In this document: positions 1-10,228 of the stretch, in pieces | How the letters are laid out: every line of letters begins with the position of its first letter | How positions within the stretch are numbered: position 1 is the stretch's first letter | DNA from: a virus | Taxonomy: Duplodnaviria; Heunggongvirae; Uroviricota; Caudoviricetes | Length of the DNA stretch: 10,228 nucleotides | IMG/VR virus record: IMGVR_UViG_2923302340_000004 | Coordinates: 1 to 10,228 of that record | Reading direction: 5' to 3' (one strand) | Notes under the pieces: generated by a model | The model's database searches: none | What the model was told of the DNA's origin: nothing | The model's input: the letters and a program-made list of their open reading frames with translations, nothing else | Program-made: the position numbers and the translations under genes

Positions 1-1428
1 GTGAAATTATTCAGATTCTCTAAAGTAAAAATTGCAGAACTGCCAACGCCGGAACATGGACAGGTCGAATATGGTGATACGGAGGTTAACGGGCTGCGTG
101 TCCGTGTAGGTTCGTCTGGTGTGAAAAGTTTCTGCATTTCCCGTAAGCGTAACGGAAAATTTATTCGTGCAACGCTGGGGCGTTTTCCTGATCTGAGCGT
201 GGATAATGCCAGGGCTAAAGCTATGGAACTCCTTGGCGAAGTCGCCACAACGGGGATAAATCCGAACATAGCAAAGCGCACTAACAACAAGGCCATGATA
301 ACGCTGAGTGAGGCGATTGACGCCTACGTAAAAAATCGTGGCCACCGCCTGAAACCCGCCACAGAAAAACAGTACCGCAGCATATTACAGAATTATTCCG
401 GTGACTGGATGGCCCATACCCTCGCCAGTATTTCCCGCGAACGGGTGGAACAACGGCATAAGGCCATCACTGATGGGGCTGTATGGTTCGGTGCTGATAA
501 AACCACGTTACGGGCTGGGGTTGGTACAGGAAGCAAGGCACAGGCCGATTTATGGGCGCGTGCGCTACGTGCTGTGTGTCGGTTTGCGCATGATCATTAC
601 CGTGATGATGCGGGTAATACTCTTTTACCGGATCCGCCGACTCTGGTACTGAGCACCAAGCGCCAGTGGCACGGAACGGTAAGAAAAACGGAACGTATCC
701 GCCTGCATGATTTTCCCCGCTGGTTTGCTGCTGTAGCTGCTGTGCGCGACCAGGGCGAACAGGAAAGGGATGATATAGCGGTGACGGTATGCGATGCCGT
801 GGAAATGGCGCTTTTTACCGGACTGAGGAAATCAGAAATTTTTGGCCTTACGTGGGATCGAGTGAATATGGGCGGTCGTTTTTTCTGGATAGACACCACG
901 AAAAACGGGGATCCGCTCGAATTACCGATTACTGATACGTTGCGGGAAATGTTCCACCGCCGACTGAAAATAAAAAACGCTGATGATGTTCTGCTGTTTC
1001 CTGGTGTGAAGGGAGTGATTCAGGAAACACGGCACATCATAGACCGGATAAGCGCGGCTACTGTTCCAGAGTCGAACGATGAAATGCTCTCCCCTGTACC
1101 ATTCAAATGGCACGATGCACGCCGGACGTTCGGAACGGTTGCCGAACTGGTGGGCGTGGGCAATTACATCCTCAAGCGCCTGATGAATCACCGTACTATG
1201 CGAAGTGCTGACGTAACGCAGGGGTATTTACATTTTGGTGCTGATGAACTGCTGGAGCCAGCGTCACGGATAGAACGGGCAATTCTGGAACATGCCGGGC
1301 TGGTGGAGAGTAAAAAATCTATCGATGCGCAATTGCTTTCCGCACTGGAGAGTATGAGTGACAGTGAGAAACGCGCATTACTATTTAGTATCGTTAATTC
1401 AAATGGTGATTTGAATGTCAGAAAATAA
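1..1428 (+). CDS. int: Tyrosine site-specific integrase, P4-type (N-terminal arm-binding domain plus catalytic core)
   Basis: 475-aa ORF. N-terminus (KIAELPTPEHGQVEYGDTEVNGLRVRVGSSGVKSFCISRKRNGKFIRATLG...INP) matches the arm-type DNA-binding domain pattern of P4-family integrases. C-terminal core has the H-x-x-R box (WHDARRTFGT) and a terminal Tyr motif (DVTQGYLHF). Starts with GTG at the window edge, so the true start could be at or just upstream of position 1. Has a ~50-aa C-terminal extension relative to typical members. Confidence 0.9.
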   Translation: MKLFRFSKVKIAELPTPEHGQVEYGDTEVNGLRVRVGSSGVKSFCISRKRNGKFIRATLGRFPDLSVDNARAKAMELLGEVATTGINPNIAKRTNNKAMITLSEAIDAYVKNRGHRLKPATEKQYRSILQNYSGDWMAHTLASISRERVEQRHKAITDGAVWFGADKTTLRAGVGTGSKAQADLWARALRAVCRFAHDHYRDDAGNTLLPDPPTLVLSTKRQWHGTVRKTERIRLHDFPRWFAAVAAVRDQGEQERDDIAVTVCDAVEMALFTGLRKSEIFGLTWDRVNMGGRFFWIDTTKNGDPLELPITDTLREMFHRRLKIKNADDVLLFPGVKGVIQETRHIIDRISAATVPESNDEMLSPVPFKWHDARRTFGTVAELVGVGNYILKRLMNHRTMRSADVTQGYLHFGADELLEPASRIERAILEHAGLVESKKSIDAQLLSALESMSDSEKRALLFSIVNSNGDLNVRK

Positions 1429-2101
1429 AATCATTGCTGCAATAGAATTTGACCATAATGATGCGAAGGATATGAATACTATTGCAGATTATATTAGAGA
1501 TGAACTGGCGTCTTCTTTTGTAAAAAAAACGATATGCGATATGGCAAATATCACACCATCTAAAATGTCTCTGGAGGAGAGATTATCATTATCGTCAGAG
1601 ATAGAAAATAAGGATTTAAAGGTTAATATTTCTGTATGTGCCGGGTATGGAGATGATTTTGATAAAAAATTTAATAGTGCATATTCAGAATTCAATGATA
1701 TTTTGAAAGCTGCCATTATATTTGAAGTTCTTGGTTTCAACAGACTTGCAGATCAGTTACGTGAAAGATATGCGATTTTAGTGTCGGAGAATTTATTAAA
1801 ATCAGTACGTGATATAGCTAATGTAAAGAAAATTATCAGTGAAGACCGTAGTAAAGCAAAGAAAGGAAAAACAAACAGGCATAAATCAACAGCGTTATCT
1901 ATAGCTTGTAACACTTGGAAAAAATACCCTAATGCCAGTTTACCCGGGCTATCCGCAGAGATATACGCGCATTTACGCAATAAATGGAATGATGTCCCTG
2001 TAGTTGGGACTATAGAGAGATGGCTTAAGGAGTCGGGGATGAATCCAAAATCCCCGCAAAAAAACAGGGATTTTAAGTTAGTTATTGGAGACAAAGAATA
2101 A
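1415..2101 (+). CDS. Hypothetical protein, AT-rich accessory (cargo) gene between int and alpA
   Basis: 228-aa ORF. ATG at 1415 is preceded by GGTGA and overlaps the integrase stop by 14 nt. The gene is visibly AT-rich (roughly one-third GC by eye) against ~50% GC flanks. No motif I can confidently assign; C-terminal third is basic (KKGKTNRHK...) and could be nucleic-acid binding. Confidence 0.6.
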   Translation: MSENKIIAAIEFDHNDAKDMNTIADYIRDELASSFVKKTICDMANITPSKMSLEERLSLSSEIENKDLKVNISVCAGYGDDFDKKFNSAYSEFNDILKAAIIFEVLGFNRLADQLRERYAILVSENLLKSVRDIANVKKIISEDRSKAKKGKTNRHKSTALSIACNTWKKYPNASLPGLSAEIYAHLRNKWNDVPVVGTIERWLKESGMNPKSPQKNRDFKLVIGDKE

Positions 2102-2233
2102 ATCCAGTTTTATCCTCTGTAATCCAGATTTCAGTCATGTAAACCAGATATGCGATTTTGTATCTGGTTTTCCTGTCTTCAAGACTTCCCCATCGCTAAA
2201 TAACGTATACCTGTTCTTAATCAGAAGTATACG
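2101..2233 (+). promoter_or_regulatory. Putative alpA promoter/operator region with direct repeats and a perfect 9-bp inverted repeat
   Basis: Direct repeats AATCCAG(A)TTT at 2101-2111 and 2121-2131. Perfect inverted repeat AACCAGATA (2142-2150) - 10 nt - TATCTGGTT (2161-2169), immediately upstream of the alpA start. Confidence 0.35.
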
Positions 2234-2242
2234 GTGATACTC

Positions 2243-2431
2243 ATGCATTTAGAAAAGATGACCCGCAAAGAAGCTGCCGAGCATTTGGGGGTAAGTGTCC
2301 AGACTCTTGCTAACTGGGCGTGTACTGGCAAGGTAAAAATCCCTTTTCATAAGCTGGGGCGCAAAGTGCTGTATATGCGCACTGATCTCGATGCTTATCT
2401 TGCATCCACTCGCAGAACGCAGACGGTGTAA
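2243..2431 (+). CDS. alpA: AlpA-family / excisionase-like helix-turn-helix DNA-binding protein
   Basis: Short protein with the typical HTH signature MTRKEAAEHLGVSVQTLANWACTGKVKIPFHKLGRKVLYMRTDLDAYL (compare AlpA/HTH_17 pattern: hydrophobic-LGVS-x-T-hydrophobic-x-x-W ... G-R-x-hydrophobic-x-hydrophobic-x-x-x-L-x-x-W/Y-L). Located directly after int and a cargo gene, as in CP4-57-type islands. Start ambiguous: GTG 2234, ATG 2243 (GGTGA upstream) or ATG 2258. Confidence 0.8.
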   Translation: MHLEKMTRKEAAEHLGVSVQTLANWACTGKVKIPFHKLGRKVLYMRTDLDAYLASTRRTQTV

Positions 2432-2541
2432 GGGGGAGTGATGGCACATAAAACAAAGGCGACCGCAGAGGGCCGCCAGTGGCATAACACTAAACTTGAG
2501 CATATCCAGAATACCAGGTTGTTGGCTGGTGGGCAATGCAA

Positions 2542-2715
2542 TCAGTCTGGTTCAGTTCGTTGCCATACCTGCAATGGGCGCGTTTCCCTGTACTCTTTAA
2601 GGAATTGCTCAAGGGCAAAAGCACATGGCGCGAATCTTTCTGATTCATGCTCTATCTTTCTGCGCCGTCTTTTCCGTGCCGGTGATAATGTTTTGGTCAA
2701 TTCTTTATCGGTCAT
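2542..2715 (-). CDS. Small basic hypothetical protein (uncertain; may be non-coding)
   Basis: Minus-strand ORF downstream of the RHH gene, reading MTDKELTKTLSPARKRRRRKIEHESERFAPCAFALEQFLKEYRETRPLQVWQRTEPD. AGGA lies 8 nt upstream of the internal ATG; the alternative ATG at 2730 has no SD. Many rare Arg codons (AGA, CGG, AGG). A same-region + strand frame is also open, so the coding strand is not settled. Confidence 0.3.
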   Translation of the reverse strand: MTDKELTKTLSPARKRRRRKIEHESERFAPCAFALEQFLKEYRETRPLQVWQRTEPD

Positions 2716-2772
2716 TGTGTTGTCCTGCATAGCAATGCGCCGTAGTTACTCACACCACGGCGCTGGTGATGG

Positions 2773-2952
2773 TTACTCCTGCTCTTTGGCCTTGCGGCGC
2801 TGGCGGCGTTTGATCTCGCCTTTAACGGCAGTAACTATAAATTGCGCCTTGCTTTCACCTTCATCTAAATTTTTTTCTAAGTCTGCAACAACATCATGCG
2901 GGAATCTGGCATTTAACTGTTGCGACTTATTATTTGTTGAACCTGTTGCCAT
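2773..2952 (-). CDS. Ribbon-helix-helix (Arc/MetJ/CopG-like) small DNA-binding protein, putative transcriptional repressor
   Basis: 59-aa product MATGSTNNKSQQLNARFPHDVVADLEKNLDEGESKAQFIVTAVKGEIKRRQRRKAKEQE. Layout is beta-strand (QQLNARFP), helix A, G-x-S turn (GES), helix B, basic tail, which is the classical RHH pattern. ATG at 2952-2950 is preceded by a strong SD (GAGAGGA) 7 nt upstream. The longer ORF-track version (to 3126) has an implausible N-terminal extension covering the promoter. Confidence 0.6.
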   Translation of the reverse strand: MATGSTNNKSQQLNARFPHDVVADLEKNLDEGESKAQFIVTAVKGEIKRRQRRKAKEQE

Positions 2953-3142
2953 TACTGAATCCTCTCTAAGTTGGTGCGATTCAGTATACACAAAAAAAAT
3001 TTCAGAGAAAGGCTTGAAGTGCGATTCACTTTCTGATAGGTTAAAAACGAATGGTGCGATGCACCAAGCAACAACGCCCCGCAGTGGTGGCACACATGCA
3101 GGGCGTCTAACCACCAACGATAGCAACAGTATCGAGGCAGCT
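2953..3142. promoter_or_regulatory. Divergent control region between the RHH gene (-) and the icd-like gene (+), with repeated GTGCGAT operator-like motifs
   Basis: GGTGCGATTCAG at 2973-2984, AGTGCGATTCAC at 3018-3029, and the palindromic GGTGCGATGCACC at 3053-3065. A -10-like TATACT (minus strand, plus coordinates 2983-2988) overlaps the first repeat, just upstream of the RHH SD. Confidence 0.4.
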
Positions 3143-3346
3143 ATGAGAAATTATACCAGACACCCGCAAGGGCGGGACTCGTACAACCTGAATAAATACA
3201 TCTGGCGTTTTATCGCCCTGAGCACGGCACAACCGCGCGTGATTACCATTGAGGCCACCAGCGAACAGGAAGCGCGTCAGCAATCTCCGGCTGGCTGCGT
3301 GATGGTATTCGCCGCCCGTATTCGTCAGGGGGTGTGCCATGCCTGA
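3143..3346 (+). CDS. Icd-like small protein (host cell division inhibitor Icd-like family), tentative
   Basis: 67-aa product MRNYTRHPQGRDSYNLNKYIWRFIALSTAQPRVITIEATSEQEARQQSPAGCVMVFAARIRQGVCHA. The YIW-F-A ... IEA-SE-EAR ... FAAR pattern resembles the short Icd-like proteins annotated in P4-like elements. GAGG lies 7 nt upstream of ATG 3143. The upstream in-frame extension of the ORF track (from 2438) looks non-coding. Confidence 0.55.
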   Translation: MRNYTRHPQGRDSYNLNKYIWRFIALSTAQPRVITIEATSEQEARQQSPAGCVMVFAARIRQGVCHA

Positions 3347-3659
3347 TATGTCAAATTACCAGTACCTGATTAATCCGCATTTTAACTGTGAGCATGATAT
3401 TGCTAAAAAGGTTTATTCCGCTGCTGATGAGGCTACTGACAATATATCAATGGCTGTTGCGTCAATTGGTAGCCTGATGTGGCATGCGTCAGAAAATGAG
3501 GACTATGACGAAAAGGCCATGCGCATTGATATGGGTAATATCGGTTTGTTACTGGCAATGCTTGGGCGGTTTGATATTTCGTTACGGTGCACCATTGAAA
3601 ATGCCACAGATGCATTAAATGCCATAAAGAAAGCGAATACTGATTCAAATCGGGGATAA
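3339..3659 (+). CDS. Hypothetical protein
   Basis: 106-aa ORF. Its ATG overlaps the icd-like stop (ATGCCTGA), suggesting translational coupling. A G-rich SD-like stretch lies upstream. Acidic protein with no recognisable motif. Confidence 0.55.
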   Translation: MPDMSNYQYLINPHFNCEHDIAKKVYSAADEATDNISMAVASIGSLMWHASENEDYDEKAMRIDMGNIGLLLAMLGRFDISLRCTIENATDALNAIKKANTDSNRG

Positions 3660-3665
3660 ATAATC

Positions 3666-3965
3666 ATGAGAACATATTTATCTGGCTTGACTGCCAGCGG
3701 TTATGCACACCCCAAAATTATCCCCGGCGCTATTTATCTGGATAAGAACGGTAACAGAGTAACGGTAAAAGAACTGATGTTTGACCGTGTGTATTTTATT
3801 CGTGATGGCTATTCATTTCATAGTTCGCTGAACGTGGAGATCTTTATTAGCAGATTCCGGCGGGAAATCCCGACTTCCAGAAATAACCATGTGTCACGTG
3901 TGGATGTGGATAAAAAACTGCAGGAACTGAAAAACATGATTGCCGCGTGGAGAGAGCCGAAATGA
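3666..3965 (+). CDS. Hypothetical protein (small, precedes the primase)
   Basis: 99-aa ORF. GGGGA SD lies 9 nt upstream of ATG 3666. Its stop TGA (3963-3965) overlaps the primase ATG (3962) as ATGA. No motif confidently assigned. Confidence 0.55.
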   Translation: MRTYLSGLTASGYAHPKIIPGAIYLDKNGNRVTVKELMFDRVYFIRDGYSFHSSLNVEIFISRFRREIPTSRNNHVSRVDVDKKLQELKNMIAAWREPK

Positions 3966-6085
3966 AAAAAGCGCCAAATTTAAAACACCAGCCGCGTGAC
4001 AAAATGACGGAAGTCATCATTTTTGCGGGTAGTGATGCGTGGGCACATGCGAAGCAGTGGCAGGAACAGGACGGGCGACTGGCTGGCGATAACGTGCCTC
4101 CTGTCTGGCTTGGAGAGCAACAACTTGCCGAACTGGACAACCTGCAAATCGTACCGGACGGACGCTATCGCGTGCGTCTCTATCAGGCGGGGTTATTGCG
4201 TCCGGGGCTTGTTAATACCATCGGGCAGAAACTGGCAGCGGCAGGTGTCAGGGATGCTGATTATTACCCTGAAGGAATGCACAGCCAGAAACGGGAGAAC
4301 TGGCGCGAATATCTGGAACGTGAACGGGCAGAGCAGGCGGAAAAGAAAAAGGTAGTTGAACTGCCTGTAAAGAAAAAAGAGCCATGCTATCAGGATGATG
4401 AATTAAAGCCCCGCGTTGAAAGTCGCGTCGATGGTGTTTTCTGGGTAACGCCCAAAGTGGATAAGCAGTCAGGCGAAATTATCCGGCCTGAGACGTGGTT
4501 ATGTTCTCCGCTTGAACTACTGGGAACGGGGACGATCGGTAAAGAGCATTACCGCGTGATGCGCTGGAAAAAATTAGCAAACCATGAAGTCATCACAATG
4601 GCGATCCCGTGTGGTGGCATTGGCGACCGTGACGGCTGGCGGTTGCTTAAAGATCACGGGCTGAACGTGACAACAAACGGCAAATACAGGGCTATCCTGG
4701 CTGACTGGATGCAGTTAAGCGGAAGCCATGAGGAATGGCAGCTAAGCACAACAACGGGCTGGCATTTTGGCGCGTATATCATGCCGGACGGCTCAATCAT
4801 TGGTGATTCTGAAAAACCGATCCTGTTTACCGGAAAAAGTGCCGCTGTTAATGGCTATTCGGTTGCGGGTACGGCGGAGGGCTGGCGCGACTGCGTGGCG
4901 CGGCTGGCTGGTGGCAATCCGTCCATGATGCTGGGTGTTGCCACGTCACTGGCAGCACCTTTGATTGGCCTTGTTGGTGCTGACGGCTTCGGGGTACATC
5001 TTTTCGAACAGTCATCGGCAGGGAAAACCACCACGCAGAACATCGCATCCAGTTTATGGGGAGAGCCGGACGCACAACGGCTGACCTGGTACGGCACAGC
5101 GTTAGGTATCGCTAACGAGGCAGAGGCGCACAACGACGGGCTGTTACCCCTGGATGAAATAGGCCAGGCCGGAAACGCGCGGGAGGTGTCCACGTCAGCC
5201 TATACGTTGTTTAACGGTTCCGGGAAATTACAGGGGGCGAAGGACGGCGGCAACCGGGAGATAAAACACTGGCGCACGGTGGCAATCAGCACCGGAGAAA
5301 TGGACGTTGAGACATTCCTCAAAACGGAGGGGATAAAAGTCAAAGCGGGGCAGCTTGTCCGCCTGCTTAACGTTCCGATGGAAAAAGCCACGCACTTTCA
5401 CGAATACAGCACCGGAAAGGCGCACGCAGACGCGTTAAAGGATGCCTGGACAGAAAATCACGGGGCAGCGGGTCGTGAGTGGGTTAAATGGCTGGCAGGC
5501 CACCAGCAGGAGGCAAAGGATACGGTAAGGGAATGCCGCGAACGGTGGCGCAACCTGATACCGGAGAGCTACGGCGAGCAGGTCCACCGCGTGGGTGAGC
5601 GTTTCGCCATACTGGAGGCCGCGCTTGTGCTTTCCGGTCATGTAACTGGCTGGGCCGCGCAGGAATGCCGGGACGCAATACAGCATAACTTTAATGCCTG
5701 GGTGAAGGAGTTCGGCACGGGTAACAGGGAATTTAAACAGATGGTTGAACAGGCTGAGGCGTTTTTGTCGTCGTTCGGGTTCAGTCGATACCTTCCTTAC
5801 CCAAACAGTGATGAACGTGATTTACCGATTAAAGACCTTGCCGGATACAGAAAGGGGAGTATCAGAAATGAAGATGATGAGTTCCGTTTTTACACGTTTC
5901 CTCATGTGTTTGAGGGGGAGATCGCACAGGGATTTAACCCGTCCCACTTTGCCCGCGCGTTGAGTGCTGCCGGAATGCTGGAAGCGGGTAACGATCGCCG
6001 TTACAAGAAAAAGGCTCTCGGCAAAATTGGGGGGAAGCAGCATGTTTTTTACGTGCTGATGTTCCAGCCTGAGGCAGAAGATTAA
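3962..6085 (+). CDS. Replication protein: primase/helicase-like with a central P-loop NTPase domain (PICI Pri-Rep / P4 alpha-like role)
   Basis: ~708-aa ORF. ATG 3962 is preceded by GAGAG and overlaps the upstream stop; the ORF-track start is a GTG at 3947. Walker A-like FEQSSAGKTTTQ and Walker B-like GLLPLDEIGQ lie in the middle of the protein. Its size and position immediately upstream of an iteron array are typical of satellite/plasmid primase-helicases (DUF927-like). The family name is from memory. Confidence 0.8.
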   Translation: MKKAPNLKHQPRDKMTEVIIFAGSDAWAHAKQWQEQDGRLAGDNVPPVWLGEQQLAELDNLQIVPDGRYRVRLYQAGLLRPGLVNTIGQKLAAAGVRDADYYPEGMHSQKRENWREYLERERAEQAEKKKVVELPVKKKEPCYQDDELKPRVESRVDGVFWVTPKVDKQSGEIIRPETWLCSPLELLGTGTIGKEHYRVMRWKKLANHEVITMAIPCGGIGDRDGWRLLKDHGLNVTTNGKYRAILADWMQLSGSHEEWQLSTTTGWHFGAYIMPDGSIIGDSEKPILFTGKSAAVNGYSVAGTAEGWRDCVARLAGGNPSMMLGVATSLAAPLIGLVGADGFGVHLFEQSSAGKTTTQNIASSLWGEPDAQRLTWYGTALGIANEAEAHNDGLLPLDEIGQAGNAREVSTSAYTLFNGSGKLQGAKDGGNREIKHWRTVAISTGEMDVETFLKTEGIKVKAGQLVRLLNVPMEKATHFHEYSTGKAHADALKDAWTENHGAAGREWVKWLAGHQQEAKDTVRECRERWRNLIPESYGEQVHRVGERFAILEAALVLSGHVTGWAAQECRDAIQHNFNAWVKEFGTGNREFKQMVEQAEAFLSSFGFSRYLPYPNSDERDLPIKDLAGYRKGSIRNEDDEFRFYTFPHVFEGEIAQGFNPSHFARALSAAGMLEAGNDRRYKKKALGKIGGKQHVFYVLMFQPEAED

Positions 6086-6116
6086 CCCCCTGTGTGAGGT
6101 GAAAAGTTGCGTGTTA

Positions 6117-6424
6117 TGCGGGTTACTATGTGTATAAGTGCATTAACTGCATGAATAAAAAGGAAATCAATAACCCGCACGTAACCCGCAAAACGGCAGT
6201 TATAACCCGCAAAAGTGCGATTATAACCCGCAGATGAATAACAGGAAGTGACAGCAAACAGCCACGCGTAACCCGCAGAAAAAACCCCGTTTGCGGGTTA
6301 TTTTGAGCATTTTGCGGGTTACGCCACGGCTAAACAGTAAACAGTTAATTTTGTAATGTATTGATATTAAGGAATAAAAAATACTTAGCAAGCGAAGATA
6401 ACCCGCTAACCCGCATAACCCGCA
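6117..6424. repeat. Iteron array, putative origin of replication of the element
   Basis: At least 11 copies of the 9-bp motif TAACCCGCA in both orientations. Forward copies at 6171, 6182, 6203, 6224, 6269, 6407 and 6416, plus variant TAACCCGCT at 6399. Reverse copies TGCGGGTTA at 6117, 6292 and 6313. Several spacings are 11 or 21 bp (helical phasing). An AT-rich stretch (about 6330-6395) and TATATATATA (about 6433-6442) lie within and beside the array. Located directly 3' of the primase gene. Confidence 0.7.
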
Positions 6425-6463
6425 CTGTTTTGTATATATATACGAAAAATTGAGATCTGAACT

Positions 6464-6706
6464 ATGAAGGCAAACCGCAAACAACCACACTACCGCGCTA
6501 TTGACCTTACAGAGCACTGGCTGAGAGTGGCGATAAAAATCATCGACCGAAACACGGGGGAAGGATATGCAAAAGCACATCCCGAACTGATAAGCGCATT
6601 CATGACAACGGCAGCTGCAAACTTTGCCACGTTGACAGAACGGGAGATTGCCGAAGCGGAACAGGTGACAACCATCAACGTTAAAACCGGAGAGCAGATA
6701 GCATGA
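6464..6706 (+). CDS. Hypothetical protein
   Basis: 80-aa ORF immediately after the iteron region. Its stop overlaps the SSB-like start (ATGA). Weak SD; function unknown. Confidence 0.45.
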   Translation: MKANRKQPHYRAIDLTEHWLRVAIKIIDRNTGEGYAKAHPELISAFMTTAAANFATLTEREIAEAEQVTTINVKTGEQIA

Positions 6707-7125
6707 CAGCACAGATAGCGGCTTACGGACGGCTGGTGGCTGACCCGCAGTTAAAGACCACCAGCAAGGGTACACAAATGGCGATGGCTAGTATGGCGGT
6801 CCCCCTTCCGTGCAGCCAGGCAGATGACGGAACGGCGATGATGTGGTTATCCGTCCTGGCGTTTGGCAGACAGGCCGACGCACTGGCAAAACACCACAAA
6901 GGCGAACTGGTGAGCGTGGCGGGTAACATGCAGGTAAGCCAGTGGACAGGCCAGAACGGCGAAACGCGGCAGGGCTGGCAGGTTATCGCAGACAGCGTGA
7001 TCAGTGCGCGAACAGCGCGACCGGGCGGCAAAAAAGGCCAGCAGGGGCAGGCCACTGACGCATTGAACAGGGCAAAACAACAGTCGGGGAATGATGATCC
7101 GTACGGCGATAATATACCGTTTTAA
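6703..7125 (+). CDS. ssb: Single-stranded DNA-binding protein (SSB-like, short form)
   Basis: 140 aa. OB-fold region aligns by eye to E. coli SSB: GRLVADPQLK...MAMASMAV against GNLGQDPEVR...VANITLAT, W..V.AFG..A..LAKHHKGELVSVAGNMQVSQWTGQNGETRQ against [43 protein letters not shown]. Gly/Gln-rich linker and acidic C-terminal tail DDPYGDNIPF (SSB ends in DDDIPF). GGAGAG SD lies 8 nt upstream. Confidence 0.75.
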   Translation: MTAQIAAYGRLVADPQLKTTSKGTQMAMASMAVPLPCSQADDGTAMMWLSVLAFGRQADALAKHHKGELVSVAGNMQVSQWTGQNGETRQGWQVIADSVISARTARPGGKKGQQGQATDALNRAKQQSGNDDPYGDNIPF

Positions 7126-7142
7126 ATTCTGCAAACAAAAAG

Positions 7143-7171
7143 ATGCCGGAAAAAAATAGATTTTCCGGCAT
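7143..7171. terminator. Perfect 11-bp stem-loop (ATGCCGGAAAA / TTTTCCGGCAT, 7-nt loop) after ssb; possible terminator or RNA structure
   Basis: Inverted repeat at 7143-7153 and 7161-7171, 18 nt after the ssb stop. There is no U-tract 3' of the stem on the + strand (the T-run is inside the stem); a T-rich run follows on the - strand. The terminator call is therefore weak. Confidence 0.3.
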
Positions 7172-7336
7172 GCTACATAAATCCCGACCAAAGGAAGTAA
7201 ATACATTAACACGAATTATCAGCACTGAAGTTGTTACGGCATATTTTATACAACATTGCACTTGGTTGCATGTATTTGCATAGCAGACATCGGTAATAGA
7301 ATATATTCACAATTATTTGTAATGAATGTAAAGAGG

Positions 7337-8383
7337 ATGAGTATGGTTGATTTATATTCGCCTACACAGCTTGTGCAGGTGGCTAATGCTGAAGATGTGC
7401 AAAAAAAATTAAATGCGTTGTTTACCAGTTTGTTTTTCACTCGCTCGGTAATGTTTGAATCGAGAGACATTATTCTTGATACGATCGACGATCCAAATAT
7501 CCCGATCGCGGCGTTTTGCTCTCCTATGGTGGGCAGTAAAGTTTCACGAGATGAGGGATACGAATCAAAAACAATTCGTCCAGGTTATATGAAGCCGAAA
7601 AGCAGCATTGATCCAAATAAGTTAGCTGTGCGCCCTGCTGGTGTGTCACCTGAGCAATACAATGCTTTTGGGGCGCGTAATATTAAAGTTAAACAGGCGA
7701 TTGTAAATCAGGCTAAAGCTATTCGTGCACGTATTGAATGGCTTGCTGTTCAGGCAATCACAACGGGGAAAAATATCATTGAGGGCGATGGTATTGAACG
7801 TTATGAGCTGGACTGGAATATAAAACCACAAAATATCATCACTCAGTCTGGCGGTACTGAGTGGTCAGGTAAGGATAAAGAAACTTTTGATCCAAATGAT
7901 GATATTGAGAGCTACGCAGAATTTAGTGAGGGCGTCACTAATATCATCATTATGGGTGGTAATGTATGGAAGAAATACCGTTCATTCAGAGCGATAAAAG
8001 AGGCTTTGGATACCCGTCGTGGCTCTAATTCCGAACTGGAAACGGCCCTTAAAGACCTTGGTGATTCGGTGAGTTTTAAAGGGTATATGGGCGATGTTGC
8101 GATTGTTGTTTACAGCGGGCGTTATACCGACGAGGACGGAACTGAAAAATATTTCCTTGATCCTGATTTGATGGTGCTTGGCAATACGGCTCTTCAGGGG
8201 ATTGTCGCTTATGGCGGTATTCAGGATCCGGAGCTAATCCGGATGGGGCTGACTAAAGCCGAACTTGCACCGAAAAACTATATTGTGCCTGGTGATCCGG
8301 CTATTGAATATGTGCAGACACATTCAGCACCACAGCCAATACCGGCCCGCATCAATCGTTTTGTTACCGTTCGCATTGGCTAA
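7337..8383 (+). CDS. Major capsid protein, lambda gpE family
   Basis: Extensive collinear similarity to lambda gpE as I recall it: MSM start, then NIITQSGGTEWSGKDKETFDPNDDIESYA, LDTRRGSNSELETALKDLG, YMGDVAIVVYSG, MVLGNT, GDPAIEYVQTHSAP against lambda NITQSGGTEWSKRDKSTYDPTDDIEAYA, LDTRRGSNSELETAVKDLG, MYGDVAIVVYSG, MVLGNT, GDPAREFTMIQSAP. SD AAGAGGA lies at 7331-7337; the start is ATG 7337 or, with better spacing, ATG 7343. The ORF-track start at 7256 is an artefactual extension. Confidence 0.9.
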   Translation: MSMVDLYSPTQLVQVANAEDVQKKLNALFTSLFFTRSVMFESRDIILDTIDDPNIPIAAFCSPMVGSKVSRDEGYESKTIRPGYMKPKSSIDPNKLAVRPAGVSPEQYNAFGARNIKVKQAIVNQAKAIRARIEWLAVQAITTGKNIIEGDGIERYELDWNIKPQNIITQSGGTEWSGKDKETFDPNDDIESYAEFSEGVTNIIIMGGNVWKKYRSFRAIKEALDTRRGSNSELETALKDLGDSVSFKGYMGDVAIVVYSGRYTDEDGTEKYFLDPDLMVLGNTALQGIVAYGGIQDPELIRMGLTKAELAPKNYIVPGDPAIEYVQTHSAPQPIPARINRFVTVRIG

Positions 8384-8392
8384 GGGGGAGCA

Positions 8393-8734
8393 ATGGCTAC
8401 TCATTACACTGAACTCATGTCTGGCACTGAAGCACTGGTTACTACGCTGGGGATATTTTCAGCCAATAAAGGGGTAATACCTGCGTTTACGCCACTGATG
8501 CAGGAAGATGCAACTGGTGCGCTAGTGGTATGGGATGGAACGAGCGCAGGCAAAGCGGTTTATGTTTCCGCTGTACAAATCGACACAGCGAAAAAAACAC
8601 AGGCACAGGTTTATAAGACAGGTGTTTTAAATGTTGATGCTCTGAACTGGCCTGAGTCTGTAAAAGAACTGTCGGCAAAGGTTGCCGCGTTTGTTGGCTC
8701 AGGTATTTCTGTTCAGCCGCTGGCTCGTGTGTAA
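8393..8734 (+). CDS. Head decoration protein, lambda gpD family
   Basis: 113 aa. PAFTPLMQEDATGALVVWDGTSAGKAVYVSAVQ...YKTGVLNVDALNWPE...AAFVGSGISVQ aligns by eye with lambda gpD [32 protein letters not shown]...YKSGTFRYEDVLWPE...TAFAGTAISIV. Strong SD TAAGGGGGAG is coupled to the capsid gene stop. Confidence 0.8.
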   Translation: MATHYTELMSGTEALVTTLGIFSANKGVIPAFTPLMQEDATGALVVWDGTSAGKAVYVSAVQIDTAKKTQAQVYKTGVLNVDALNWPESVKELSAKVAAFVGSGISVQPLARV

Positions 8735-8745
8735 AGGGGGATACA

Positions 8746-9129
8746 ATGCAGAATCATTACAATGACCTTAAGCCAATTGCCGAAATGATGTATCCGGATC
8801 CAGCAGTAGAGGAATTAAAGGCTATTGCTGACAAAATGCGTTTAAGTGAACGCCTTGTTGATATGAATCAGGTGATGGAACTTACTACCCTTAGCCGTCG
8901 CACATTGCTAAACCTTGAGGCTCGCGGAGAGTTCCCCGAACGCGTACAGGTTACGGAAGGGCGTAAGGCCTGGTATTTAAGTGAAGTGATCGACTGGATA
9001 AACAATATTCCTCGAGCTTCTGAATATTGCCGCGTACCTGTCCCAAAAAAGCCAGATGCGGCGCTATGCCTCAAGATTGAGCGTGTACGCCGCAATGCAT
9101 GGGATGGTCGCTATAAGCTGATTGGTTGA
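8746..9129 (+). CDS. Second AlpA-like / excisionase-type HTH protein with N- and C-terminal extensions
   Basis: 127 aa. Central segment VDMNQVMELTTLSRRTLLNLEARGEFPERVQVTEGRKAWYLSEVIDWINN matches the AlpA/HTH_17 signature (TGLSRSTIYRL...G.FP.P...G.R...W...E...W). SD TAAAGGGGGA is coupled to the gpD-like stop. Lies immediately upstream of the cos site. Confidence 0.65.
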   Translation: MQNHYNDLKPIAEMMYPDPAVEELKAIADKMRLSERLVDMNQVMELTTLSRRTLLNLEARGEFPERVQVTEGRKAWYLSEVIDWINNIPRASEYCRVPVPKKPDAALCLKIERVRRNAWDGRYKLIG

Positions 9130-9182
9130 TGAAATTAGGGCCCGTTCTGGCTGGCGGGTCCTTTCCGGCGATCCGGTAGGCT

Positions 9183-9230
9183 ACGGGGCGGCGACCTTGC
9201 GGATTTTCGCTATTTATGAGCCTTTTCGGG
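9183..9230. other. cos site: lambda-type cosN (12-nt cohesive-end sequence GGGCGGCGACCT at 9186-9197) with flanking sequence, followed by a divergent cosB-like region
   Basis: ACGGGGCGGCGACCTTGCGGATTTTCGCTATTTATGAGCCTTTTCGGG is near-identical over ~35 nt to the lambda left end GGGCGGCGACCTCGCGGGTTTTCGCTATTTATGAAAATTTTCCGG (from memory). It sits ~135-150 nt upstream of the Nu1-like gene, as in lambda. Sequence beyond ~9220 diverges from lambda cosB. Confidence 0.75.
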
Positions 9231-9330
9231 TTGGTGGTGGTGGTTTTGTTTTTCGCTCTATCTCTATGAATAAAAAGGGAAAGATAACACCAACACACCA
9301 ACCTGAAACCTTAACTAAGTGGGGATATTG

Positions 9331-9873
9331 ATGAAATCGCACCTGATGAACAAAAAAACTATGGCGCAAAGCTGCCGCGTAAGTGCGACAGCGTTCGACA
9401 AGTGGGGAGTAACTCCCGTTGAGCGTAAAGGCCGTGAGGCGTTTTATGATGTTGCTAGCGTGATAGACAATAGGGTTAACAATGCAATTAACCAGCTTAC
9501 AAACGACAAAGGCGAGATTGATGATGATGAACTTTTACGCGTAAGAATCAGATTAATGACGGCCCAGGCGGAAGCGCAGGAACTTAAAAACGAGCGCGAA
9601 CGCGGCGAGGTGATTGATACAAAGTTTTGCATCTACGCGATTTCAAAACTAGCGAGTCAGATTTCATCAATCATGGACAGCCTCCCGCTCACAATGCAAA
9701 GGCGCTTTCCCGATATAAAGCCGTATATGCTGGATGAACTAAAAAGGGAAATAGCCAAAGCATGTAACGCATGTGCAAGACTTGACGAAAACCTGCCACA
9801 GATACTGGCTGATTACCTGATGGAAACTACCGGAAACGCGCCTGAGAAGTTGCTAGAGAACAAAGGCGAGTAA
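9331..9873 (+). CDS. Terminase small subunit, lambda Nu1 family (satellite TerS / packaging-redirection candidate)
   Basis: RLMTAQAEAQELKNERERGEVIDTKFCIYAISKLASQISSIMDSLPLTMQRRFPDI matches lambda Nu1 RLTRAQADAQELKNARDSAEVVETAFCTFVLSRIAGEIASILDGLPLSVQRRFPEL. The N-terminus MNKKTMAQ... corresponds to the Nu1 wHTH start MEVNKKQLAD. GGGGA SD precedes ATG 9331; alternative ATG at 9346; the ORF-track start is GTG 9319. Confidence 0.85.
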   Translation: MKSHLMNKKTMAQSCRVSATAFDKWGVTPVERKGREAFYDVASVIDNRVNNAINQLTNDKGEIDDDELLRVRIRLMTAQAEAQELKNERERGEVIDTKFCIYAISKLASQISSIMDSLPLTMQRRFPDIKPYMLDELKREIAKACNACARLDENLPQILADYLMETTGNAPEKLLENKGE

Positions 9874-9946
9874 CCGCCGCCCCGTAACGGGCCATAATTC
9901 CAGGAAGGACCCGACGACACCAGGCTATCAGAACGATGAGGGCACA

Positions 9947-10228
9947 ATGACTGAAGCCGAACTACTGGGATTAATCCGCCGCGTCGTCGGAATCAGCCAG
10001 CAGCATGACGAACAGGCCACACAGCCGGACAGCGTGACCGCTGAAAATTATGTGCGTGTTGTTGCTGAGGTGATGCGCCGTGATGGTATTGAGCTTAACG
10101 GCGTGGATATGCGCAACATACGAACAAGAGTCCTTGAGTTGCTGGCATACCGTCGCCGTTCTCAACAACGGAGGGAGAGCGCGAAAAATACTTACCAGTG
10201 GAAGAAGCCGGAACGGTTGCGGCGGTAG
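9947..10228 (+). CDS. Hypothetical small basic protein downstream of TerS
   Basis: 93-aa ORF with GAGGG SD 6 nt upstream of ATG 9947; stop TAG at 10226-10228 is the last codon of the window. Arg-rich C-terminus. No similarity I can recognise to the lambda gpA N-terminus. Confidence 0.45.
   Translation: MTEAELLGLIRRVVGISQQHDEQATQPDSVTAENYVRVVAEVMRRDGIELNGVDMRNIRTRVLELLAYRRRSQQRRESAKNTYQWKKPERLRR

Follow-up and report, generated by a model that had tools for sequence, protein, structure and literature searches.

We analysed a 10,228-nt stretch of virus DNA (IMG/VR record IMGVR_UViG_2923302340_000004, positions 1 to 10,228), here called the window, in whose numbering all positions are given. 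Judged by its genes, the window is a Gram-negative phage-inducible chromosomal island (PICI) of Escherichia coli. Its replication gene, rep, is followed by an array of short repeats (iterons), and the interval 6108-6424 that holds them is very probably the replication origin of the island, composed of sites that the product of rep would recognise. This reading is supported because the array was exchanged together with most of rep between sibling islands, because arrays occupy the same place across the protein family, because the repeat covaries with the C-terminus of Rep, and because the sites are selectively conserved. From the letters of the window alone, the array had been proposed to be an iteron origin to which the upstream replication protein binds, and these comparisons bear this out. 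By the same comparisons, the interval is well formed but not unusual and belongs to a known kind, the origin type of PICIs and of the Staphylococcus aureus pathogenicity islands (SaPIs).

The iteron array and its layout across relatives

We searched the window for the 9-mer TAACCCGCA, exactly and with at most one mismatch, and compared the counts with those of 200 shuffles. Ten exact copies lie within 6108-6424. Two one-mismatch copies, TAACACGCA at 6108(-) and TAACCCGCT at 6399(+), complete an array of 12 sites of 9 bp each (Table 1). The sequence-only reading had counted at least 11 copies in both orientations, which agrees with these sites, but it had placed the start of the array at 6117 and so missed the one-mismatch minus copy with which it begins. 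Over the whole window, 16 matches with at most one mismatch were observed against 2.8 expected, and chance repetition was rejected because none of the 200 shuffles attained this number. The four matches beyond the array are isolated one-mismatch singles, and the same search found no second iteron cluster in the 10.2-kb window.

The sites fall into four sets, ordered (-)(-) / (+)x5 / (-)(-) / (+)x3, with start-to-start spacings of 9; 11, 21, 21, 45; 21; and 8, 9 bp. The 11- and 21-bp spacings described earlier thus hold for the long direct set and for the inverted pair, whereas the two end sets are abutting tandems, 8-9 bp apart. The stop codon of the upstream ORF (open reading frame) ends at 6085, and the sites begin 23, 32 / 85, 96, 117, 138, 183 / 207, 228 / 313, 321, 330 nt beyond it. 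The array can be divided into two units of one design, in which two minus sites are followed by an AT-rich gap and then by several plus sites.

We then examined 80 loci with DUF927 homologues of Rep, 49-75% identical and drawn from across Enterobacterales, for a repeated 8-9-mer within 450 bp past the stop codon. About 70 of the 80 carry a repeat array in the same place. At least 10 sites are present in 44 of these roughly 70 arrays, which follow a few recurring layouts (2-5-2-3, 2-4-3-3 and 3-5-1-3) and share a 9/11/21/21-bp spacing. The left pair or triplet lies ~21-30 nt past the stop codon in most homologues, and the 11/21/21 spacing and the terminal triplet at 8-9 bp recur across iteron classes. 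Locus L009, for example, has its sites at 24, 33 / 98, 109, 130, 151, 168 / 191, 212 / 265, 274, 283 nt from the stop, in the same orientations as in the window. Both degenerate sites of the window, 6108 and 6399, fall where the family layout predicts.

The layout is shared, and the repeat itself is not. At least 14 distinct 9-mers occur in the arrays of the DUF927 family, among them TAACCCGCA, TAACCCGT, TAACCCAC, TGAACCAAC (the majority class), TGAACCACG and TGAACCGAC, and further TGACCCGAC, TGAGACAAC, TGGGACAAC, TGGGATAAG, TGGTACAAC and TGACACACT. Many loci of the TGAACCAAC class show six sites, with three inverted copies, an AT gap and three direct copies spaced 11 and 21 bp apart. Such loci either lack the second half or have one whose motif escaped our script.

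The array contains two AT-rich gaps between sets of sites. GC content is 0.20-0.30 across 6320-6409 and 0.32 in 6120-6169. A single AT-rich core had been proposed for the array; 6322-6398 is indeed AT-rich, but it is one of two gaps, and the one conserved in the family is 6126-6170. In each of the 44 arrays of 10 sites or more, this first gap is AT-rich (GC 0.09-0.33, 43-65 bp), whereas the second is AT-rich in relatives with the 2-5-2-3 and 2-4-3-3 layouts and GC-rich in those with the 3-5-1-3 layout. Gap 1 further contains a motif that remains similar from one iteron class to another; relatives (L007-L086) have it as TGATTTATAAGG or TGATTTTAAAGGA, the window as CATGAATAAAAAGGAA. The motif positions in the window are 6150-6165 and 6372-6380, and GAATAAAAA recurs in gap 2. 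Because gap 1 is AT-rich in every one of these arrays and has a class-independent motif, we favour it as the predicted primary site of unwinding, with gap 2 as a possible second. A DnaA-box-like TTATACACA, a perfect TTATNCACA, lies in gap 1 at 6129-6137 on the minus strand, adjoining the left iteron pair, and is conserved in the E. coli O157:H7 EDL933 island EcCIEDL933. DnaA-box matches are not enriched over the window as a whole (12 against 10.1 expected, a chance level), and we ascribe no function to the box.

Sites 7-9 form a long palindrome, in which 6266-6280 pairs with 6310-6324 (inverted repeat I5) and the 14-nt spacer between sites 7 and 8 is fully conserved. This raises the possibility that the repeats are mainly signals for transcription, namely a terminator or attenuator of rep and/or operators for the orf80-ssb-capsid genes. 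The fold computed for RNA of 6255-6330 has -33.2 kcal/mol (z -4.5), with U-rich runs behind it, terminator-like hairpins number 4 against 0.9 expected (all on the minus strand), and the array sits between rep and the next genes. The hairpin, however, covers just 3 of the 12 sites, and arrays of the TAACCCGT class have no close palindrome, their sets being 47-59 bp apart. A promoter scan found no sigma-70-like promoter in 5950-6550, the motif varies together with the C-terminal end of Rep, and the spacing holds from class to class. We therefore regard a mainly transcriptional function as very unlikely, although the hairpin may double as a terminator of rep, and a secondary terminator or autoregulatory role for the array is possible. 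An Rfam scan of the window returned zero families.

The array was also compared with a phage collection. Its right end, 6361-6449, has 86.8% identity to OR845527.1, an unannotated 2.2-kb entry named 'Escherichia phage ECO95 1-6-1'. No phage in the collection has the array, this 89-bp stretch being the sole overlap, and OR845527.1 is probably a satellite fragment deposited as a phage.

The Rep protein and its probable cognate iterons

The gene upstream of the array had been called a primase gene. The array does follow it closely, but the gene encodes a DUF927 helicase, and no primase domain was found in Rep by Pfam or NCBIfam; D5_N, Pox_D5, Toprim and Zn-ribbon domains were likewise not found. 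DUF927 is the only Pfam family detected (162.7 bits against a cutoff of 22.6, aa 173-440). When compared with PDB sequences, Rep matched the SaPIbov1 Rep, 8tch (E 4e-15, aa 223-607), and the SCCmec Cch MCM-like helicase, 5dgk (E 3e-3), with its Walker A motif SSAGKTT aligned in both matches, and NCBIfam gave a weak match to SCCmec Cch1. By homology Rep is an MCM-like AAA+ initiator-helicase, and 'primase' is a misnomer because a primase domain is undetectable in it. The ORF of the window starts with GTG at 3947 (712 aa), whereas RefSeq relatives start at the ATG at 3962 (707 aa).

Longer relatives of ~900-950 aa, from other genera of Enterobacterales, carry Zn_Ribbon_Prim and Toprim_3 domains ahead of DUF927. 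In place of this Zn-ribbon/Toprim region, the window Rep has an alpha/beta domain of ~145 aa. The domain (aa ~6-145) is 67-70% identical to the N-termini of the Reps of EcCICFT073 and EcCIRM12579, and among E. coli PICIs it is joined to three unrelated helicase bodies, of the DUF927/MCM-like type, the D5_N/SF3 type and the RepA-helicase family. It matched no Pfam family and gave no convincing fold match in the PDB. The domain may be a PICI-specific adaptor.

The clearest link between Rep and the array came from the sibling island L002 (NZ_CP126940). This island is 97% identical to the window over 3076-4382 and 95% identical over 6479-9874, and between 4382 and 6479 the alignment contains no similarity. 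The recombination breakpoint at 4382 falls directly after the N-terminal domain. Within the interval, a D5_N/SF3 'primase family' Rep and nine copies of TGTTCACC replace the DUF927 Rep and TAACCCGCA, so that Rep residues 146-712 and the entire intergenic iteron region form one exchangeable replicon cassette. Other initiator classes come with repeats of their own. EcCICFT073 has CTGTCTACC / GGTAGA(C/T)A as its iteron, and EcCIRM12579 (L088), an island with an initiator of the RepA-helicase type, has AAGTGAGG / AAGTGAGA repeats at 5555-5750, directly 3' of the gene, with one copy inverted. The PICIs L089, L092 and L093 likewise combine an initiator of the RepA-helicase family with this fourth kind of repeat. 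The product of orf80, the next gene, was considered as a reader of the iterons and rejected, since it is ~90% identical across the window, L002 and EcCICFT073, which represent three iteron types.

We next scored covariation between Rep and the 9-mer. Pairwise identity was calculated in 30-aa windows of Rep for pairs with the same or different iteron classes and expressed as the area under the curve (AUC). The AUC for 'same iteron class' was ~0.6-0.78 over residues 1-590 and 0.92-0.97 at residues 660-712. The 9-mer class therefore covaries with the last ~50 residues of Rep, where class-specific residues are visible in the alignment. In pairs matched for the core, with an identity of 72% or more over aa 170-600 that averaged 0.83 in either group, the identity of aa 676-705 was 0.83 when the class was the same and 0.56 when it differed. 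For instance, the identity between L053 and L038 is 97% in the core and 66% in aa 676-705, and their iterons are TGAGACAAC and TGAACCAAC, respectively; the corresponding segment of TGAACCAAC-class Reps includes GRGYQRKSPRIDGRQINVYV. Element-specific recognition, which the sequence-only reading had proposed, is thus favoured by the tracking of at least 14 iteron classes with the C-terminal segment and by the cassette swap in L002.

Conservation of the sites points in the same direction. Between the origins of EcCIEDL933 and the window, 3 of 107 iteron columns differ, compared with 54 of 224 spacer columns (Fisher p = 2.4e-7). All three differing iteron columns sit in the two degenerate sites. 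The EcCIEDL933 equivalent of the 6108 site is an exact TGCGGGTTA, and both sites 1-2 are exact there. Taken together, these comparisons support the view that the iterons are specific to their cognate initiator and that the array is exchanged together with Rep 146-712.

The same two islands bear on whether the small terminase of the island might recognise the array as a packaging site (pac or cos). The island has its own terS and capsid genes, and PICIs are known to carry packaging signals (PMC6092414). EcCIEDL933, however, keeps the TAACCCGCA array despite an HK97-type module (P27-family TerS, TerL, HNH), and L002 has a different array despite a right arm that is 95% identical, terS included. 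As the array goes with Rep across different packaging modules, we rejected a packaging site, which we consider extremely improbable.

Comparison with known origins and a proposed mechanism

SaPI Reps are hexameric, self-loading 3'-5' helicases whose C-terminal winged helix binds iterons located directly 3' of rep (PMC9371898). A SaPI origin has 6-12 iterons of 5-6 bp, two or more of them to either side of an AT-rich region, with the two sides pointing in opposed directions, and binding and melting by Rep are independent of ATP (PMC9371898). For SaPIs and EcCICFT073, published work shows that rep with ori drives autonomous replication and that loss of ori abolishes it. SaPIbov1 Rep, the 'Rep2' (SF6/MCM-like) prototype, is PDB entry 8TCH, which bears the title 'Initiation of replication protein with helicase activity encoded by Pathogenicity Island SaPIBov1'. 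The window resembles this system in that the putative origin lies directly 3' of rep and has short iterons in opposed sets around AT-rich DNA. Its Rep is homologous to SaPIbov1 Rep, and the predicted specificity likewise maps to the C-terminus. The window differs in having two repeated units with two AT-rich gaps in place of a single centre, a Gram-negative host, and a Rep with the PICI-specific N-terminal domain; no separate pri gene is evident upstream.

In Gram-negative PICIs, pri-rep is followed directly on its 3' side by the origin, in which two iteron sets enclose an AT-rich region (PMC6092414), and the pri-ori segment of EcCICFT073 maintains a plasmid (Fillol-Salom et al. 2018, PMC6092414). 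The window shares with EcCICFT073 the backbone, the gene order, the position of the origin, iteron sets by AT-rich DNA and the N-terminal ~145 aa of the initiator. The initiator body of EcCICFT073, by contrast, is D5_N/SF3 (P4 family), and its iteron is different too. A DUF927-type replicon was found in none of the nine reference E. coli PICIs of PMC6092414 that we checked. A close relative is the cf-PICI (capsid-forming PICI) EcCIEDL933, whose Rep is 89% identical and whose TAACCCGCA array agrees with that of the window in how its sites are ordered, oriented and spaced. It differs from the window in its HK97-type packaging module, its attachment (att) site and its diverged spacers, and its origin is 84% identical overall. 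According to a preprint on cf-PICIs, EcCIEDL933 replicates on induction.

Satellite phage P4 provides both a parallel and an alternative. The annotation of P4 (NC_001609) gives TGTTCACC as its 'ori type 1 repeat'; no exact TAACCCGCA occurs in P4, and one-mismatch copies are there at chance level, in line with the earlier statement that the 9-mer is unlike the P4 iteron. P4, too, replicates as a satellite; its short iterons point both ways and are bound by the C-terminus of a multifunctional initiator-helicase, and its crr region lies directly 3' of the alpha gene. Its alpha protein, however, is of the SF3/D5 type with a primase domain, and P4 needs two separated cis regions, whereas the window has a single cluster. 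The P4 iteron is used by the sibling island L002 and not by the window island. Membership of the P4 ori/crr group was rejected on iteron, initiator class and two-region architecture.

By analogy with crr, the array could instead be a cis-acting replication enhancer or copy-control element of the handcuffing/incompatibility type, bound by Rep while initiation takes place elsewhere. The P4 crr sits likewise, directly 3' of alpha after its terminator, and consists of duplicated units with iterons both ways, which the two similar units of the window array resemble. But the true ori of P4 has the same iterons at another place in the genome, and beyond its array the window offers just four scattered one-mismatch singles against 2.8 matches expected. 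Furthermore, the equivalent segment of EcCICFT073 suffices, with rep, for plasmid maintenance (PMC6092414), and AT-rich gaps between opposed iterons are the signature of SaPI origins (PMC9371898). An enhancer or copy-control element is therefore improbable in our assessment, though less so than the transcriptional and packaging alternatives, and we retain the reading as a replication origin.

Classical iteron plasmids such as pPS10, F and R6K have direct iterons of ~17-22 bp at ~22-bp spacing, a Rep_3-type initiator and DnaA boxes. An origin of this class was rejected for the window, where the sites are 9 bp and of mixed orientation, the initiator is of the DUF927 type and there is one DnaA-box-like match.

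Several observations weigh against the origin reading or parts of it. About 10 of the 80 homologues have no clear array (e.g. L019, L020, L049, L070, L085), and some show merely six sites. The 9-bp iterons of the window are longer than the 5-6-bp iterons of SaPIs. Two AT-rich gaps are present, leaving two candidate melting sites. The covariation was corrected for phylogeny only in part, through core-identity matching, and the functional steps are all drawn from comparison and from homology to SaPI Rep and EcCICFT073. Finally, the C-terminal winged helix of Rep is presumed, since the structural models are poor, the HTH_56 match is below its cutoff and the PDB profile search is blank. We utilized AlphaFold2 to model full-length Rep (20-sequence alignment), which gave a mean predicted local distance difference test (pLDDT) score of 47 and a confident structure only for aa 20-130 (pLDDT 80-88). 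A Foldseek search of the PDB with this poor model ranked 8tch and 5dgk first, with TM-scores (template modelling scores) that are meaningless. A model of the C-terminal 153 aa (41 sequences) had a mean pLDDT of 49 and was unusable. Pfam HTH_56, the helix-turn-helix (HTH) of Cch, matched Rep aa 637-707 at E 9e-4 and 19.7 bits, below the cutoff of 26.2; sub-threshold matches occurred in 11 of 37 relatives (best 3.6e-5). A profile of the Rep C-terminus gave one match to PDB sequences, at chance level.

On the origin reading, and by analogy with SaPIs, replication would proceed as follows. Rep would be made upon induction by a helper phage, and its presumed C-terminal winged-helix domain would bind the 12 iterons. 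With spacings of 11 and 21 bp, the direct sites would all lie along the same side of the helix, and the opposed sets on either side of an AT-rich gap would position two hexamers. The AT-rich DNA would then melt, most likely at 6126-6170 and possibly also at 6322-6398, and the helicase would load itself, with no separate loader. Priming would have to come from outside Rep, because the Zn-ribbon and Toprim primase present in the longer relatives is missing from this protein; the likely source is the host or the helper phage.

A more detailed model is speculative, and we think it rather less likely to be right than wrong. In it, the duplicated two-unit origin would load two MCM-like hexamers, and the 9 bp would form a 'code' read by a wing of ~30 residues (aa 676-705). 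The N-terminal adaptor would have taken the place of the Zn-ribbon/Toprim primase, and its occurrence on three unrelated helicase classes suggests that it recruits a host or helper-phage factor (e.g. a primase) or couples replication to induction.

The island and its replication module

Gram-negative PICIs are marked by an integrase, an AlpA-like HTH, genes that run in one direction, ori after pri/rep, capsid or terS genes resembling those of phages in the absence of tail and lysis genes, and att sites of their own. The features of a Gram-negative PICI were found in the window at gene level, in its ORFs, Pfam matches, att sites and shared backbone. The gene order is int, HTH, Icd-like, DUF4222, Rep, orf80, SSB, lambda-E-like capsid, gpD-like, HTH and terS (Table 1). 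The SSB encoded downstream of orf80 is likely an accessory of the replication module. Copies that are ~97-98% identical lie in E. coli chromosomes at nfeF-tRNA-Ile/mug or cspD-clpS, the latter a published att site of Gram-negative PICIs (Table S1, PMC6092414), and the backbone is common to the window and the reference islands EcCIIHE3034 and EcCICFT073. Of 5,426 complete E. coli genomes, ~300 contain a match to the origin region, and in ~140 of these the match extends over at least 80% of it. The left arm (1-3346) is a mosaic, with 1-2549 matching the nfeF-site islands L002 and L003 and 2428-3075 matching the cspD-clpS island L001. Two ORFs in this arm, of 228 aa (1415-2101) and 302 aa (2438-3346), have no Pfam family.

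Table 1 Coordinates of the array, of Rep and of neighbouring features, in window numbering unless a locus is named
Feature	Position	Strand	Remark
Exact TAACCCGCA, minus orientation	6117, 6292, 6313	-	
Exact TAACCCGCA, plus orientation	6171, 6182, 6203, 6224, 6269, 6407, 6416	+	
Sites 1-2	6108..6125	-	abutting pair; TGCGTGTTA TGCGGGTTA on + strand
Sites 3-7	6171..6277	+	direct TAACCCGCA copies, spacing 11, 21, 21, 45
Sites 8-9	6292..6321	-	21 bp apart
Sites 10-12	6399..6424	+	abutting direct TAACCCGCT AACCCGCA TAACCCGCA, starts 6399, 6407, 6416
Unit 1	6108-6277		
Unit 2	6292-6424		
AT-rich gap 1	6126..6170	.	45 bp, GC 0.29; between oppositely oriented iterons
AT-rich gap 2	6322..6398	.	77 bp, GC 0.31, local minimum 0.20
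rep	3962..6085	+	DUF927 (MCM-like, SaPIbov1-Rep/Cch-type) initiator-helicase, by homology
Rep N-terminal domain	3962..4382	+	~140-aa alpha/beta domain, beyond the exchangeable cassette
Occurrences of the N-terminal domain	window 3962-4382; L004 5242-5680; L088 4154-4590		
Candidate iteron-specificity segment	5972..6061	+	Rep aa 676-705 (GMLEAGNDRRYKKKALGKIGGKQHVFYVLM); presumed wing of C-terminal winged helix
Exchangeable replicon cassette	4383..6478	+	Rep residues 146-712 and entire intergenic iteron region
Longer Zn_Ribbon_Prim/Toprim_3 relatives	L038 1921-4710; L014 1873-4701; L064 1996-4671		
Six-site TGAACCAAC-class loci	L021, L023-L026, L030, L032, L036, L040, L041, L043, others		sites in first ~150 bp past stop
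Integrase	1-1428		
DUF4222 protein	3666-3965		directly upstream of rep
orf80	6464..6706	+	80-aa protein; small conserved gene; no Pfam/NCBIfam family
ssb	6703..7125	+	Pfam SSB, E 1.7e-15
terS	9319-9873		

The general picture of PICI and SaPI origins is unchanged by this analysis. The layout found across the family and the placing of specificity at aa ~676-705 add usefully to that picture, but both are what the SaPI Rep model would predict. They assign a probable origin and a likely specificity determinant to the DUF927-type replicon, which is shared with the model cf-PICI EcCIEDL933. The cassette swap shows that PICI replication modules are exchangeable cassettes, composed of an initiator body and its cognate iterons and bounded by precise breakpoints, and such exchange bears on the incompatibility or coexistence of several satellites in one cell. 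The iteron classes and the small C-terminal changes that accompany them form a data set for origin recognition by self-loading MCM-like helicases, and the natural Rep/iteron series could be used for orthogonal replicons. If the wing does read a 9-bp code, the family would hold at least 14 natural, mutually orthogonal Rep/iteron pairs that could be reprogrammed by swapping the wing segment.

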